This document shows positions 5,116 to 10,511 of a stretch of 64,000 nucleotides of DNA, in pieces; position 1 is the first letter of the stretch, and each line of letters starts with the position of its first letter. Location: positions 1,568,001 through 1,632,000 of the forward strand of contig CAXXHB010000003.1 in the NCBI GenBank assembly GCA_963664815.2, given 5' to 3'. This stretch comes from Spirochaetota bacterium (GTDB taxonomy: Bacteria; Spirochaetota; UBA4802; UBA5550). The position numbers and the translations under genes are program-made. A model generated the notes under the pieces. It worked only from the letters and a program-made list of their open reading frames with translations. It did not search any database and was not told the origin of the DNA.

Positions 5116-5627
5116 TGAAATTTTTTAAAGTAGCAGCTATTCTGATCTTTTTACTGGGATTCTATATAAGCGGATTCACTTATACAAGGATTTATCTTTT
5201 TTCAGAAACTGAGACCGGTAAAGAGAATTTAGTATTATCCGATATCTGTAAAATGGAAGGAGATGGTATCGATAAAATAGCCGGAATTGTTATATCATCC
5301 GGACTCTATAAAGACGGAATTGTTGACAGTCAGGAATTATACGATTTACTTAGTAAAAGTCTGGGCAACAAATTATTAATTTTCGGGAGTGGAGTTAAGA
5401 TCAGAAAAATTAAAACCATGAACGGGCCTGAAGTAATGAAAACAATTCTGGTCGAAAAGGGCGAGATGGTTGATCTTTCAATAAAAAAAAATGGTATCGT
5501 TATAGAAATTAAAGGCAAAGCTTTAAGCAGCGGTTCAGAGAAAGATAAGATTGATTTCAGATTATCGACAGGAAAAGTTATAAAAGGTAAAATCATCTCA
5601 CTCAACAGGGCGGATATAGATTTATGA
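5115..5627 (+). CDS. flgA: FlgA-like P-ring formation chaperone (short)
   Basis: Lies between flgG and flgH. Signal peptide; C-terminal LVEKGEMV...IEIKGKALSSG...GKVIKGKI resembles the FlgA C-terminal domain. Confidence 0.7.
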   Translation: MKFFKVAAILIFLLGFYISGFTYTRIYLFSETETGKENLVLSDICKMEGDGIDKIAGIVISSGLYKDGIVDSQELYDLLSKSLGNKLLIFGSGVKIRKIKTMNGPEVMKTILVEKGEMVDLSIKKNGIVIEIKGKALSSGSEKDKIDFRLSTGKVIKGKIISLNRADIDL

Positions 5628-6253
5628 TAAAAGGTTTTCGAATATCCTTTTTATTTATTATAATTACTACATCTGTATGTGCTGCAACAATATGGAAGGA
5701 AAAAGATATCTATTCCACAGATAAAAATCTTCAGGTGGGAGATATTATAATAGTGAACGTAAGAGATTTTTCAAAATTAAAATTTGATATTGCTCTTAAT
5801 AATAATACTTCTTCAAATGTTGCTTCCAACCCGGATATGACAATAACAGGATTCCTGCCGAAAATATCTGCCAATAAAAATATTAAAAATAATGAATCAA
5901 CTAATTTTAATGGTAATTCAAAAATTGAAATTGCAATAGCCGCAAGAGTAACTGAAAAACAGAATAACGGTTTATCCGTTATCAATGGTAACAGGATATA
6001 CACATTTGATGGAGTAACAAATACAATTCAGATAGCAGGCATTATTGATCCTAAACTGTTGAATGCAGGCACAATTGATTCCGGGCATGTGGCGGATTTC
6101 ACAATTCAGATAACCGGAAGAAAGGATGGCCTCACTATAAGAAAAGCACAGGTTTCCGGAAGTGAACAGGCAGATACAAAACTTTCCGAGCAGGAAAAGC
6201 AGCAGATAGTAATAGATTATCTTGAAAAAATTATAAGGGAATTAACCAGGTAA
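5624..6253 (+). CDS. flgH: flagellar L-ring protein FlgH
   Basis: VGDIIIVNV and ARVTE...G.SVINGNR...IAGIIDP...IDSGHVAD motifs; operon position. Confidence 0.8.
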   Translation: MIKGFRISFLFIIITTSVCAATIWKEKDIYSTDKNLQVGDIIIVNVRDFSKLKFDIALNNNTSSNVASNPDMTITGFLPKISANKNIKNNESTNFNGNSKIEIAIAARVTEKQNNGLSVINGNRIYTFDGVTNTIQIAGIIDPKLLNAGTIDSGHVADFTIQITGRKDGLTIRKAQVSGSEQADTKLSEQEKQQIVIDYLEKIIRELTR

Positions 6254-6254
6254 A

Positions 6255-7265
6255 ATGAAAATTTATAAACTGACGTCTCTCATAATTTTTATATTTCTGT
6301 CAGTAAACCTCAATGCAGAGATACCTGTGAAAGTAAAAAATATCTGTTTTATTGACGGTTATAAAACCAACCAGGCATATGGTTATGGGCTTGTTGTAGG
6401 ACTTCAGGGGACTGGAGATTCAAAGTCAGGTTTAACTAAAAATTCATTGAAAAATCTTCTGGCGTCAATGGGACTGCAGGAGGAAAACCCCGTAATAAAG
6501 AATACAGCAGCAGTGATTATATCAGCAACTCTTCCTCCAAATTTAAGGGTCGGTGAAAAGATTGATGTAAACGTATCATCAGTCGGTGATGCGAAGTCTC
6601 TTGCAGGGGGTATTCTTGTCCAGTCATCTTTGAAAGGGGGAGATGGCCTGATTTATATAGCTGCGCAGGGGAAAATCTCATTTCCTTCGGGAGAGAATGC
6701 AAGAAGTACTGTTAAAACTGCCGGAATTATTGTCGGTGGAGGAGTTGTCGAGAAAGAGATAAAACCGGATTTTGTATTTAAAACATCGGATAACAAAGAT
6801 TTTATTTACCTTGTGCTGAACAACTGGGATTATTCAACAGCGGATAAGCTGATTAAAGCATTGAAAGTGAAACTTAAAACCAGTGAGATAACCCTTGCTG
6901 AAAATGGAAGGATAAGTATAACGATTGATAATGCGATTCCTTTATCAGAATTTATTTCGAGTATTGAGAATGTTGAAGTAGTGCCGGAGACAAGGGCTAC
7001 TATAGTAGTAAATGAAAAAGATGGAACTATTGTTACAGGTGGGAATGTTACAATTTCAGAGGCAATGGTCAGCAGGCGTGGGATGCTGGTTCAGATTGAA
7101 AAATCTGATAAAAAGCTGAGCGCTTCAGTTATTAAGGATTCTTCAACTGTTAAAGATCTGGTGGACAGCCTGAATGCGGTAGGCGCCAATACAGAAGACA
7201 TTATTTCAATACTTAAAGCCCTTAAAGATTCCGGGGCATTACACGCAGAGTTGATTATTAAGTGA
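6255..7265 (+). CDS. flgI: flagellar P-ring protein FlgI
   Basis: GYGLVVGLQGTGDS, KNTAAV, VSSVGDAKSLAGG, VVNEKDGTIVTG and ILKALKDSGALHAEL motifs. Confidence 0.95.
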   Translation: MKIYKLTSLIIFIFLSVNLNAEIPVKVKNICFIDGYKTNQAYGYGLVVGLQGTGDSKSGLTKNSLKNLLASMGLQEENPVIKNTAAVIISATLPPNLRVGEKIDVNVSSVGDAKSLAGGILVQSSLKGGDGLIYIAAQGKISFPSGENARSTVKTAGIIVGGGVVEKEIKPDFVFKTSDNKDFIYLVLNNWDYSTADKLIKALKVKLKTSEITLAENGRISITIDNAIPLSEFISSIENVEVVPETRATIVVNEKDGTIVTGGNVTISEAMVSRRGMLVQIEKSDKKLSASVIKDSSTVKDLVDSLNAVGANTEDIISILKALKDSGALHAELIIK

Positions 7266-7272
7266 GGTCGTT

Positions 7273-7650
7273 ATGAACGGAATTGAAGGTATAATCAGTA
7301 ATACGGTTTCTTCAAGAGTTAAACCGGCGGAGAATAGTCTTAACAGAATGAATTCCGGTGATAAATTTGAAACTGAGTTAAAATCGGCAGTTGCACAGAA
7401 TGATCCTGCCAAAATGGATAAAGAACATAAAAAACTCTGGAATACCTGTGTTGAAGCTGAGTCTCTGTTTGTAGGGAAAATGCTGAAAGAGATGAAAAAG
7501 ACAGTTCCGAAAGATGAATGGCTGCATGGAGGACAGGCTGAAGACATTTTTGAAGATATGCTTTATGATGAGTACTCACTGCAGATGTCCAAGAATTGCA
7601 ATTTCGGAATGGCTAAACTTCTATATAATGAAATGAGCAAAAGAATTTAA
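7273..7650 (+). CDS. flgJ: rod-binding protein FlgJ (no muramidase domain)
   Basis: EAESLFVGKMLKEMKKTV...FEDMLYDEYS...FGMAKLLY; follows flgI. Confidence 0.85.
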   Translation: MNGIEGIISNTVSSRVKPAENSLNRMNSGDKFETELKSAVAQNDPAKMDKEHKKLWNTCVEAESLFVGKMLKEMKKTVPKDEWLHGGQAEDIFEDMLYDEYSLQMSKNCNFGMAKLLYNEMSKRI

Positions 7651-7679: not shown

Positions 7680-7711
7680 AATCCCTCATGCGTAATGCAG
7701 AGGGATTTTTT
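7680..7711 (+). terminator. intrinsic terminator of the flg operon
   Basis: aatccctc...gagggatt hairpin followed by a T-run, 30 nt after the flgJ stop. Confidence 0.7.
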
Positions 7712-7774: not shown

Positions 7775-7823
7775 TTGACATTTTTATGGGCAATTATTAT
7801 TTTGCTTATAATGTAGCAGGAGG
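7775..7823 (+). promoter_or_regulatory. putative sigma70 promoter and RBS of the 7829 ORF
   Basis: ttgaca at 7775, AT-rich -10 candidates (tatttt at 17-nt spacing, tataat further downstream), and aggagg 5 nt before the ATG. Confidence 0.55.
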
Positions 7824-7828
7824 ATATT

Positions 7829-8050
7829 ATGATTAAAAAGGTAAAAGATTTAAGGGCAGGGATAAGGCTGAAAATCAGGAAGCCGCCAAAAGTCGAAATT
7901 CCGAAAAATGTCTATAACCGCAAGGTTAAACACAGAAGGGGTCTGGAAGATGAGAAATTCAGACCCCTTTTTTATCCCTCCGGTTTATCATTGCATCTAA
8001 ATAACCATATAAGAAACAGTATTACTGTTAATTCTGTTATAGCTGCCTGA
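7829..8050 (+). CDS. small basic protein, putative ArfA-like alternative ribosome-rescue factor
   Basis: Strong RBS. K/R-rich sequence with KNVYNRKVKHRRG, comparable to ArfA KGSYxRKGKH. Terminator lies upstream of the stop codon. Confidence 0.6.
   Translation: MIKKVKDLRAGIRLKIRKPPKVEIPKNVYNRKVKHRRGLEDEKFRPLFYPSGLSLHLNNHIRNSITVNSVIAA
7936..7973 (+). terminator. intrinsic terminator inside the 7829 ORF
   Basis: ggggtctg(ga)...(tt)cagacccc stem followed by tttttt; the U-tract is on the + strand only. Confidence 0.75.
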
Positions 8051-8270
8051 ACTCCATTGCTTCAAAATGATTTTCAAGAATGGTTTTGGTTTTCACAATA
8101 AGATCTTCCTCTAATCGTATACATACCCCGCAGTCGGAACTGATTGATTTAGGAACCGGTATAATCTTAATAGGAATTTTTTCATTGATGAGGATCTTTT
8201 CAGCTTTCATAACATGGCTGACAGATGAAAAGATTATTACATAATATTTTTTTATAGTTTCATCGGTCAT
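8037..8270 (-). CDS. DUF3343 family protein (Se/S-carrier-like)
   Basis: FSSVSHVMKAEKIL...IIPVPKSISSDCG signature; next to yedF. Confidence 0.85.
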   Translation of the reverse strand: MTDETIKKYYVIIFSSVSHVMKAEKILINEKIPIKIIPVPKSISSDCGVCIRLEEDLIVKTKTILENHFEAMEFRQL

Positions 8271-8860
8271 GGGTTGATTATTCTTGATGCGCTGTTTAAA
8301 GTGTTCAGGATATCAAACATGTTGGAGATGGTACCTGTTTTTATCTTATCTGAGAGGTTGAAATAATTGACGCATGTTCCGCATATGGTTATTTCAACGC
8401 CTTTATTATTTAAGTCATGTATGTCGTCAGTAACCCCGGAACCATCCGCAGTGAGTTTAACTCCTGAATTATAGAATATAAGTCTGGAGGGGATCGGTTC
8501 AACAGATAACAGAGTATGCACAAATGCCTTCATTAAAATAGCGCCAAGTTCATCATCACCTTTACCCATTCTGTCAGATGAAAATACTACAACTGTTTCT
8601 CCAGTGCTGCATGAAGCGACAATATCATGACTGCTGCCTGATGCCTGGGGATTGACTTCTTTTAAAGTAATTGTGAAATAACCGCTGTAGGCAGCATCTT
8701 CATATGACCAGCCTGATGATGAAGCAAGACGTTTTAAATTTTCACGCGCTGTTTCATTATCTACAAGGACTTCAATAACATTAAACTCATTCATTTTGTT
8801 TTTTGTAAGTACAACCGGCTGCGGACACGCAAGACCTCTGGCGTCAATTTCGCACTTCAT
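8267..8860 (-). CDS. yedF: sulfurtransferase-like selenium metabolism protein YedF (TusA + DsrE domains)
   Basis: IDARGLACPQPVV (TusA CPxP), MGKGDDELG.ILMKAF, FYNSGVKL, CGTC and ISNMFDI motifs. Confidence 0.9.
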   Translation of the reverse strand: MKCEIDARGLACPQPVVLTKNKMNEFNVIEVLVDNETARENLKRLASSSGWSYEDAAYSGYFTITLKEVNPQASGSSHDIVASCSTGETVVVFSSDRMGKGDDELGAILMKAFVHTLLSVEPIPSRLIFYNSGVKLTADGSGVTDDIHDLNNKGVEITICGTCVNYFNLSDKIKTGTISNMFDILNTLNSASRIINP

Positions 8861-8894
8861 TTTTTTACCTCGGATTTATATTGTAAAAAAAAAC

Positions 8895-10058
8895 TTATAT
8901 ACCTTTAACTGACTTTTTTGATAATTCAGAGACAGCCTTTATGGCCGTATCTGCATCTTCAATTGAATTGAAGTAACCGAAACTGATTCTGTTTGTTCCT
9001 GATGGGAATGTCCCTGTCGTTTTATGAGCGGAGGGAGCGCAATGCAGTCCCGGTCTTGTGAGAATATCATAGTTCTCATCGAGAAAGAATGCTGTATCGG
9101 AAGGTGACTGACCTTCGATGTTAAATGACAGAACCGAAACTCGATCTGACATATTCTCTGTTCCGTAAATAACGACATTTTTCAACTTGGAAATGCCGTC
9201 AGCAAATCTGCTTAAAAGCATCTGTTCTTTTGAATGAATGTTTTGAATACCGCTTTCCATTATGAATTTAACCCCGGCATACAGACCGGCTATTCCGATT
9301 GTATTTAATGTACCCGCTTCATATTTATCCGGCATAAAATCAGGCTGAATCTCAAATTCTGAACGGCTTCCGGTACCCCCGAACATAAGGGGATTGATTC
9401 TTTTATCGAGATCTTTCCTGATGTAAAGACCACCAGTTCCCATGGGGCCGAATAATCCCTTGTGTCCTGTAAAGCATAGTATGTCAATGTGGGACTTTTC
9501 AACGTCAATATCCAGTGTGCCTGCAGTTTGTGCGGAATCCACACAGAATGGAATACCGAACTCAGAGGCTATTTTACCAGTTTCTTCGATCGGGAGGATT
9601 GTTCCTGTCACATTTGAAGCATGAGTTGATATGATGAGTTTTGTATTTGATTTTATATATTTGTGTATTTTTCCGGTATCAAGCTTCCCGGTTCTGTCAC
9701 ATTCAATTACTGTTAACTGAACTCCTCGGGATTCCATTTCACGCAGTGGGCGCATTACTGAGTTATGCTCAATGGAAGTTGTAATTACATGGTCCCCCGG
9801 CTTTAATAATCCCTGTATTACAATATTTAACGAATGAGTTATACCGGAAGTAAATACGATTCTGAGAGGATCGGATATACCAAATAACCGTGCGATAATC
9901 TCTCGTGTGTTAAATAATACCCGGCCGGCTTCGATTGATAAATTATGGCCTGATCTGCCGGGGTTACTCCCGATAAATGTATTAAAATTATTCATAGCTT
10001 CTGTTACTGATGCAGGTTTAGGCCATGATGTTGCCGCGTTATCAAGGTATATGCTCAT
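8895..10058 (-). CDS. cysteine desulfurase / selenocysteine lyase family aminotransferase class V
   Basis: IYLDNAATSWPKP, EHNSVMRP, DSAQTAG, FTGHKGLFGPMGTG and RPGLHCAP motifs; start taken at MSIYLD. Confidence 0.93.
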   Translation of the reverse strand: MSIYLDNAATSWPKPASVTEAMNNFNTFIGSNPGRSGHNLSIEAGRVLFNTREIIARLFGISDPLRIVFTSGITHSLNIVIQGLLKPGDHVITTSIEHNSVMRPLREMESRGVQLTVIECDRTGKLDTGKIHKYIKSNTKLIISTHASNVTGTILPIEETGKIASEFGIPFCVDSAQTAGTLDIDVEKSHIDILCFTGHKGLFGPMGTGGLYIRKDLDKRINPLMFGGTGSRSEFEIQPDFMPDKYEAGTLNTIGIAGLYAGVKFIMESGIQNIHSKEQMLLSRFADGISKLKNVVIYGTENMSDRVSVLSFNIEGQSPSDTAFFLDENYDILTRPGLHCAPSAHKTTGTFPSGTNRISFGYFNSIEDADTAIKAVSELSKKSVKGI

Positions 10059-10511
10059 TAAAATCACCTGCTGTTGAGATGATTAAAATTGCGCGGTTTC
10101 GTCAAGATATTTATCATCATTATTGATGTTTAAGATAAATAAAATTTATGGTAAATATATGCTTTGATAAAATAATTCATTAATAATTAATATCATACAA
10201 AGTTAATTCATTAATTTTTATTTTTGCGTAAAATGAACAATTATATCTACCGGAAGCTTTAAACATCCGGGATAATGGAATTTTTTTATCATAAAAATAG
10301 TTCAGGAATTATTACTGTAGATTAAATTAAAGCTTTATAATGTATGTGATAATTCTGCTGTTATTTATTCTATTCCGCACAGAGTCAGGCAGGAGCAGAG
10401 TTTAAAAAGTTGATTTTTTTCATGGCAGAACTATTTGTTGACAGATGCAGAGTTTTGTAAGTATATAATGATGAATATCATACAATATTACAATGAATTA
10501 AAAATGGAATT

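Follow-up and report, generated by a model that had tools for sequence, protein, structure and literature searches.

How does a gene come to carry a transcription terminator within its own reading frame, and what would the product of such a gene do? The question was raised by a small basic open reading frame (ORF; positions 7829-8050, + strand) in a stretch of 64,000 nt from a Spirochaetota bacterium (GCA_963664815.2; contig CAXXHB010000003.1, positions 1,568,001-1,632,000, forward strand), referred to here as the window. A predicted intrinsic terminator lies in this frame upstream of the stop codon; a terminator in that place would yield a message without a stop codon, and thereby put the product under the control of transfer-messenger RNA (tmRNA). 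The regulatory architecture is strongly supported by the comparison of related sequences, and the gene probably represents a new family of release factor (RF)-dependent ribosome-rescue factor made from a non-stop messenger RNA (mRNA), the function being a prediction. Wherever trans-translation can fail, a back-up for ribosome rescue is essential and, to our knowledge, RF-dependent rescue factors have been described only for proteobacteria and Bacillus.

The ORF encodes 73 aa, from the ATG at 7829 to the TGA at 8048-8050. Upstream are a putative sigma-70-like promoter (TTGACA-17 nt-TATTTT, 7775-7803, + strand, with TTGACA at 7775-7780; 10/12 consensus matches) and a Shine-Dalgarno sequence AGGAGG (7818-7823, + strand), with the ATG 5 nt further 3'. 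Residues 29-35 form the motif YNRKVKH (7913-7933, + strand), which lies inside the module KPPKxExPKxVYxRKxKH, the predicted binder of the empty mRNA channel. A hairpin of 14 pairs with a 10-nt loop opens at 7934, immediately 3' of the motif's His codon; its core is GGGGTCTG/CAGACCCC and is followed by six T residues at 7968-7973, so that the predicted terminator occupies 7934-7973 (+ strand) and the TGA lies 25 codons past the T-run. When folded alone, the segment 7931-7976 had an energy of -20.3 kcal/mol (z = -4.5) and none of 200 shuffled sequences was as stable. An automated terminator scan with a loop limit of 8 nt left this hairpin uncalled only because of its longer loop. The initial annotation of the locus had described a monocistronic basic ORF with TTGACA, AGGAGG and YNRKVKH, and a hairpin plus U6 directly after the motif, about 25 codons before the stop and oriented for the + strand; all of these features were found in place, and the minus-strand version of the hairpin has no U-run 3' of its stem. 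It was also considered whether the hairpin might terminate the convergent operon; this is unlikely, given the missing U-run on the minus strand and the fact that the hairpin accompanies the small gene into other contexts.

Among 5.8 billion proteins, 22 relatives of 52-92 aa were found, all unnamed or annotated as 'hypothetical', and HMMER run in full on 1.84 billion representatives returned 30 at E <= 0.001. The relatives' alignment is near-identical up to about residue 48, where it ends with P-F-F, the translation of the terminator's CCC-TTT-TTT; beyond this point, the sequence and the length of the tail differ in every relative. A conserved head and a variable tail had been expected of homologues; the head here comprises the first ~48 aa. 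R13, P20, P25, Y29, R31, K32, K34 and H35 are invariant. At the DNA level, in seven sequences from the same genus, TTGACA, the Shine-Dalgarno sequence and the coding part are conserved (TTGACA is invariant in 7/7) and conservation collapses right after TTTTTTAT. The variable sites at codon positions 1/2/3 in these seven sequences numbered 6/8/26 (of 35 each) for codons 1-35 and 3/3/9 for codons 36-48; in the tail they numbered 22/19/21 of 22, without codon periodicity. A GGAG/GGAGG-like element is located 5-10 nt 5' of the chosen start in most of 31 relatives. Judged by this conservation, the small ORF is a real protein gene under purifying selection, in which only the first 48 codons are constrained (7829-7972, + strand); these encode a very basic peptide of 48-49 aa, which is what the terminated non-stop mRNA is predicted to yield. 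Codons 49-73 and the TGA (7974-8050, + strand) form an unconstrained read-through tail. The idea that read-through tails carry Ala-Ala degrons was dropped, as only 3 of 60 tails end in AA.

For the analysis of the hairpin, 67 distinct sequences were collected from genomes and metagenome contigs, of which 60 are low in G+C (GC). The hairpin begins straight after the K-H codons, or their equivalent, in every genome locus examined, and a hairpin right after the motif was found in 57 of the 60 low-GC relatives, all 57 with an in-frame stop 3' of the stem. The stems vary from locus to locus (GGGTCTGG, GGGGACTGA, GGGGTATG, GGGGATTAC, GGGCTACG, GATGGCCG, GAGGAGG, GGGGAGG, GAGCCATGC). For 18 relatives with long hairpins, RNAalifold predicts 13 pairs, 8 of them with compensatory double changes; paired cells amounted to 89.7% (75.2% in shuffled alignments) and double-change cells to 35 (13.0 in shuffled alignments), values that were each reached in 0/500 shuffles. 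Control structures slid by 1-3 columns were only 34-71% paired. The hairpin-in-frame layout is thus more than chance, since it recurs in relatives with covarying stems. The changes in the stem alter the encoded residues (G-L-E..F-R-P, G-T-E..F-S-P, G-Y-D..S-Y-P), which argues that RNA structure outranks protein sequence in this region. For the group with short hairpins, the support consists of single-sequence folds; covariation was left uncounted there because differing loop lengths put the MAFFT alignment out of register.

An automated test for a hairpin with a T-run was passed by 50 of the 60 low-GC relatives. In two others (L132, L136) a T6 run is present by eye and had been trimmed off by the scoring window, and in five (L016, L026, L030, L062, L157) the stem is followed by an interrupted T-tract; by analogy with E. 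coli arfA, these five stems could be nuclease sites instead of terminators. Conservation of the internal hairpin in homologues, as proposed initially, was therefore borne out (57/60, with compensatory changes in 8/13 pairs). Its absence from homologues had been named as grounds for rejection; that applies only to a few relatives that have an ordinary stop instead, discussed below.

Carriers of the family are recorded in public databases as 'uncultured Leptospirales bacterium', 'Spirochaetota bacterium' and 'Spirochaetae bacterium HGW-Spirochaetae-5'. Of the order's 122 genomes, 63 carry the candidate, as detected with a profile of the predicted mature form. Sampled evenly across the phylum, 401 genomes gave 39 hits, 37 of them within the order; the two matches outside it are marginal fragments (E = 0.003 and 0.007). 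On this spirochaete sampling, the family appears to be confined to a single spirochaete order, which public records label Leptospirales. Gene neighbourhoods vary between genera: the same-strand downstream genes are mutually unrelated (MscS, methyltransferase, Smr, DUF6962, response regulator, hexapeptide transferase), and the downstream gene is convergent in the window and in 7/7 same-genus loci. As there is no conserved downstream gene, the small gene is not a leader peptide.

The rescue inventory of the window genome, which is 96% complete, comprises tmRNA (201.6 bits, tag ANDNFALAA) and SmpB. Exactly two genes contain an RF-1 domain (PF00472). One is RF2-like, with SPF and GGQ (L039:811-1923; C3:1774084-1775193; listed with a TTG start). 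The other (L040:1390-2457, minus strand) was assigned as RF1-like from PET and GGQ and from the following methyltransferase ORF, which we read as a putative prmC. Both are full-length release factors, and hence no ArfB was found; the window genome likewise gave no match to ArfB, Pfam ArfA or RqcH/NFACT_N, and no RqcH match exceeded the cut-off in any of 61 relatives' genomes.

Across the order, ArfB (NF006718) was found in 30 of the 122 genomes (28 over cut-off), and its distribution is nearly exclusive with that of the candidate: 62 genomes have the candidate only, 29 have ArfB only, one (G330) has both and the remaining 30 neither. ArfB without the candidate occurs in at least five families or genera (g8, 16/17; f5, 6/7; g35; g42; f4). 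The exclusion was significant by genome (Fisher p = 1.6e-10, a value that is overstated because the genomes are kin and not independent) and by genus (p = 0.018). Such a distribution is what would be expected if both genes do the same job and, correlative as it is, lends independent support to a role in rescue. Taken with the rescue inventory, it makes rescue the most economical explanation of the gene, and a probable one. Most of family f6 (genus g30), with genomes that are 94-99% complete, falls among the 30 genomes with neither gene; these may rely on tmRNA alone or hold another back-up factor.

The known factors provide the measure for such a reading. ArfA (PF03889) is, like the candidate, small and basic (~72 codons) and without GGQ; its active form is truncated, as predicted for the candidate. 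Both have a hairpin inside the ORF, and the stop-less mRNA and tmRNA-controlled product of ArfA (PMC8012679, as far as its available text describes ArfA) are predicted for the candidate too. Both also have a YxRKxKH-type motif with K-H some 10-13 residues before the functional C-terminus: K-H is at 34-35 in the candidate, about 13 residues from the predicted end, and at 44-45 in ArfA, where the hhalign alignment ends at 55. In BrfA it is at 49-50, the active form being BrfA62 (PMC6881298, available text). The candidate differs from ArfA in its Spirochaetota lineage and in an unrelated N-terminal half that is 10 residues shorter, and there is no similarity at the level of hidden Markov models (HMMs). 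In most members the hairpin is a complete intrinsic terminator that includes a T-run; E. coli arfA uses an RNase III site instead.

BrfA (YqkK of Bacillus subtilis, RF2-dependent) is closer in regulatory layout. According to the available text of PMC6881298, its gene has 72 codons and a rho-independent terminator ahead of the stop, tmRNA tags the product, which is then degraded, and the active form ends at the terminator; the latter two properties are predicted for the candidate. Both have K-H in a basic C-terminal part, which in BrfA probes the mRNA channel (same source). Two N-terminal helices of BrfA bind 23S ribosomal RNA (rRNA), whereas the low-confidence model of the candidate has only two short helices (residues 3-9 and 31-34) in a peptide that is mostly coil (mean predicted local distance difference test, pLDDT, 67.3; predicted template modelling score, pTM, 0.21). 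BrfA is confined to part of the Bacillaceae, the candidate to a spirochaete order. ArfA and BrfA are described as having in common only a K-H motif that contacts 16S rRNA, a basic C-terminal part located in the mRNA channel, a short strand by which the RF2 sheet is augmented, and a non-stop mRNA from which they are expressed (PMC6881298, available text), and the two are regarded as independent inventions, BrfA being convergent (PMC8012679, available text).

ArfT of Francisella (~40 aa, recruiting RF1 or RF2) is, like the candidate, a very small basic peptide without GGQ (PMC8012679, PMC6514570; available text of both), the use of a release factor being predicted for the candidate. Burroughs and Aravind assign ArfT to a broad family that consists of charged-helix repeats and is linked to stress proteins (PMC6514570, available text); the candidate matched no Pfam family at E <= 10, the ArfT member list itself not having been compared. 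The candidate has a non-stop layout, and the available text of the two papers contains no mention of such regulation for ArfT. ArfB (YaeJ) would share with the candidate the role of back-up to trans-translation and occupies the complementary set of genomes within the order; it has its own GGQ hydrolase domain, ~140 aa and an ordinary stop, none of which the candidate has, and GGQ does not occur in its 73-aa sequence. The stem-loop terminator inside the ORF before the stop places the candidate, at the sequence level, with the ArfA/BrfA type.

A mechanism that would account for these features can be outlined. Transcription would end near 7973-7976, leaving an mRNA without a stop codon; translating ribosomes would stall at its 3' end, tmRNA would add ANDNFALAA, and the peptide of 48-49 aa would be degraded. 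If trans-translation were saturated or lost, the untagged peptide would accumulate. Its basic C-terminal module (KPPKxExPKxVYxRKxKH and ~13 further residues) would then enter the empty mRNA channel of stalled ribosomes, and the N-terminal part, with a conserved G-[ILVM]-R-L, would recruit a class-1 release factor for the hydrolysis of peptidyl-tRNA, the peptide having no GGQ of its own. By analogy, RF2 would be the more likely partner. A prediction of the complex between the 48-aa peptide and the RF2-like protein scored 0.00 (mark 0.32) and carries no weight on the question of binding.

Not all relatives have the non-stop layout. A metagenome scan seeded with short family members yielded 38 loci. 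Seven of these with high GC (L149-L153, L159, L162; GC 0.70-0.73) encode 42-aa proteins with a real stop 7-11 residues after RRRPKH. In all, 104 such 42-aa-type proteins were found, every one annotated as hypothetical, and those with a named source came from Methylomirabilota / Rokubacteria. When the Methylomirabilota alignment was compared with the Leptospirales profile, hhalign matched 27 columns (KPPKVEVPKTVYRRRPKH and the tail) at 97.4% (E = 1e-11), a specificity that is inflated because these proteins were found with a pattern derived from the candidate family. Three further metagenome relatives (L142-L144; GC 0.30-0.33; neighbours are small unannotated ORFs) encode 43 aa, with KAPK in place of KPPK, an ordinary stop 6-7 codons past the motif and no in-frame hairpin. 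By sequence comparison, these relatives show that the functional unit is the basic module, which stops a few residues beyond K-H, and that the in-frame terminator is a lineage-specific addition.

Several of these results weigh against a rescue factor gated by tmRNA. The three low-GC relatives and the Methylomirabilota family have ordinary stops 6-11 codons past the motif, which leaves room for a role other than rescue. In 6 of the 7 Methylomirabilota loci thiI is directly downstream, with the stop of the small gene overlapping the thiI start; this linkage could point to another, transfer RNA (tRNA)-related role. The K-H pair is replaced by KY, KQ or KD in 5 of 36 distinct genome loci; these members (L008, L023, L025, L028, L029), with Tyr, Gln or Asp for His, still keep the hairpin and T-run, from which it follows that the His is not indispensable to the family. 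The genome with both genes and the 30 of 122 with neither depart from strict exclusion.

Similarity searches add to this side. For the candidate, no Pfam or NCBIfam family was matched at E <= 10; the best hits of the ArfA HMM across the window genome (E 0.8 and 1.5) both lay away from the candidate gene; BLASTP against E. coli ArfA returned nothing; and searches of the PDB with the family profiles gave no chain at E <= 10, with ArfA chains present in the library. No likeness to BrfA emerged from the PDB, Pfam and NCBIfam searches, BrfA's presence in these libraries being unconfirmed. The only trace of ArfA was a single local match in an hhalign comparison with 14 aligned enterobacterial ArfA sequences (selected from 120 listed), in which PKNVYNRKVKHRRGLEDEKFR paired with ArfA 35-55 at a probability of 16% (E = 0.0016). 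The Methylomirabilota relatives fell below this, at 2%. The motif attributed to ArfA in the initial annotation was correct when checked on the E. coli ArfA sequence; of the form KGKGSYxRKxKH, the candidate family has a nearly invariant YNRKVKH and lacks the KGKGS part. Outside the rescue factors, recognition in the ESM Atlas was below the useful mark, with only unnamed viral or DUF clusters surfacing, and a phage collection gave no tblastn match for the 48-aa peptide or for a normal-stop relative.

These points bear first on the possibility that the peptide is gated by its non-stop message and has another effector role, for instance as a ribosome-silencing or hibernation peptide, or as an RNA-binding stress protein or regulator that appears when trans-translation fails. 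What the data show is the non-stop architecture, rescue activity being inferred; ordinary-stop homologues beside thiI are unexpected for a factor gated by tmRNA, and no similarity to ArfA or BrfA is detectable with HMMs. Such a role would nonetheless make it hard to explain why the candidate and ArfB, itself a bona fide rescue factor, so rarely share a genome; the basic YxRKxKH module and its distance from the predicted C-terminus also match ArfA and BrfA, and no other back-up system was found in the window genome. Another effector role is accordingly considered doubtful, although it survives better than the remaining alternatives.

Somewhat less likely again is that the candidate is a very divergent ArfA by common descent, which would leave the mechanism the same and change only its evolutionary filing. 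The hhalign match does pair Y, R-K and K-H in register, and the hairpin-before-stop design is held in common. It is, however, one comparison of two short, compositionally biased profiles, and the Methylomirabilota relatives align worse with ArfA; the Pfam ArfA model finds nothing and the N-terminal halves share nothing. As far as the available text of the sources goes, reports of ArfA are confined to beta- and gamma-proteobacteria and a few Bacillus (PMC11633108, PMC6881298), and BrfA, in which the K-H motif is the same, is considered convergent (PMC8012679). The likeness to ArfA and BrfA is, on the sequence comparisons, one of design, and membership of ArfA by homology is without support. If taken to mean homology, the term 'ArfA-like' used initially is not supported: neither Pfam ArfA nor the NCBIfam and PDB profile searches gave a match, and the profile-profile comparison recovered the basic motif only.

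It is very improbable that the gene encodes an ordinary small protein whose overlap with a terminator is fortuitous, with a functional 73-aa product or a layout of no regulatory meaning. Five relatives do have interrupted T-tracts, and AT-rich genomes yield long chance frames after genes. Against this, the tail has neither conservation nor codon periodicity even within the genus, and varies in length and sequence in all relatives; in none of the 57 hairpin-bearing relatives does a stop precede the stem; and the compensatory changes that preserve the stem also change the residues encoded there. That the locus is not a protein gene at all, and is instead a small RNA or an attenuator with a leader peptide for a downstream gene, as the short unit (promoter, ~160 nt, terminator) and the same-strand gene that follows in some relatives might suggest, can practically be set aside in view of the strong third-position bias, the conserved Shine-Dalgarno sequence, the lack of an Rfam match on the small-gene unit, and downstream genes that are unrelated, and convergent in the window and 7/7 same-genus loci.

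The RF-dependent rescue factor made from a non-stop mRNA thus remains the preferred explanation. The observation made in the initial annotation is confirmed and its interpretation is partly supported: a divergent rescue factor with the regulatory logic of arfA and brfA agrees with the comparative predictions, all of which came out as proposed, and, independently, with the ArfB exclusion; its homology to ArfA is unsupported. Its statement that no such factor was described in the lineage agrees with a survey of 108 Spirochaetota genomes, which, in its available text, lists no arfA, no brfA and ArfB in 16 (PMC11633108). No prior description of the family was found in the main texts, without supplements, of open-access papers and bioRxiv preprints. 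A 2021 review considered that further small RF-recruiting factors probably exist and would escape similarity searches (PMC8012679, available text).

The evolutionary proposal goes further, and we consider it about evenly balanced. The family would be the fourth independent RF-dependent rescue family, after ArfA, ArfT and BrfA, and the first for spirochaetes; it would have been built on an older basic module of 27 residues (KPPKxExPKxVYxR+xKH+), which ends at an ordinary stop in Methylomirabilota, and the terminator would have been gained in Leptospirales, bringing the gene under tmRNA gating. If this were true, non-stop autoregulation would have been invented at least three times, and a conserved head, a covarying in-frame terminator and an unconstrained tail would constitute a general signature for rescue factors that are invisible to similarity searches. 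The candidate would fill the rescue-factor gap for one spirochaete order in a directly testable way, and offer a third independent case of a stop-less mRNA as a sensor of tmRNA capacity. The stop-less relatives, the ordinary-stop relatives and the ArfB genomes form a natural comparison set for the origin of this regulation.

The surroundings of the small gene in the window were also inspected. Upstream, a flgJ-like gene (7273-7650, + strand; Pfam Rod-binding match) belongs to a flagellar transcription unit that ends in its own hairpin with U6 (7681-7711, + strand; -16.5 kcal/mol, z = -4.5, 0/200 shuffles equally stable). Downstream, and outside the unit, is a convergent gene for a Se/S-carrier-like protein (8037-8270, - strand; PF11823, E = 8.8e-21), the 3' end of which is overlapped by the last 14 nt of the small ORF's tail. 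As the flgJ-like gene has its own hairpin and U6 and the downstream gene is convergent, the small gene forms a monocistronic unit of its own.

The Se/S-carrier-like gene belongs to a convergent sulfur-relay cluster (8037-10067, - strand), together with a TusA-DsrE fusion and a 390-aa ORF that we read as a putative class-V cysteine desulfurase. Its position beside the small gene is curious given the thiI linkage of the Methylomirabilota relatives; in the same-genus loci, different genes lie downstream. In two genomes of one genus (L015:1850-2218 and L016:1806-2156), the same-strand downstream gene encodes a Smr-domain protein of 117-123 aa, an adjacency that represents at most one evolutionary event. 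Smr-domain nucleases act on collided ribosomes in other bacteria. In the region 5624-7650 (+ strand) of the window, the flgJ-like gene is preceded by two ORFs (209 and 336 aa) whose products, by eye, resemble flagellar L-ring and P-ring proteins and presumably correspond to FlgH and FlgI.

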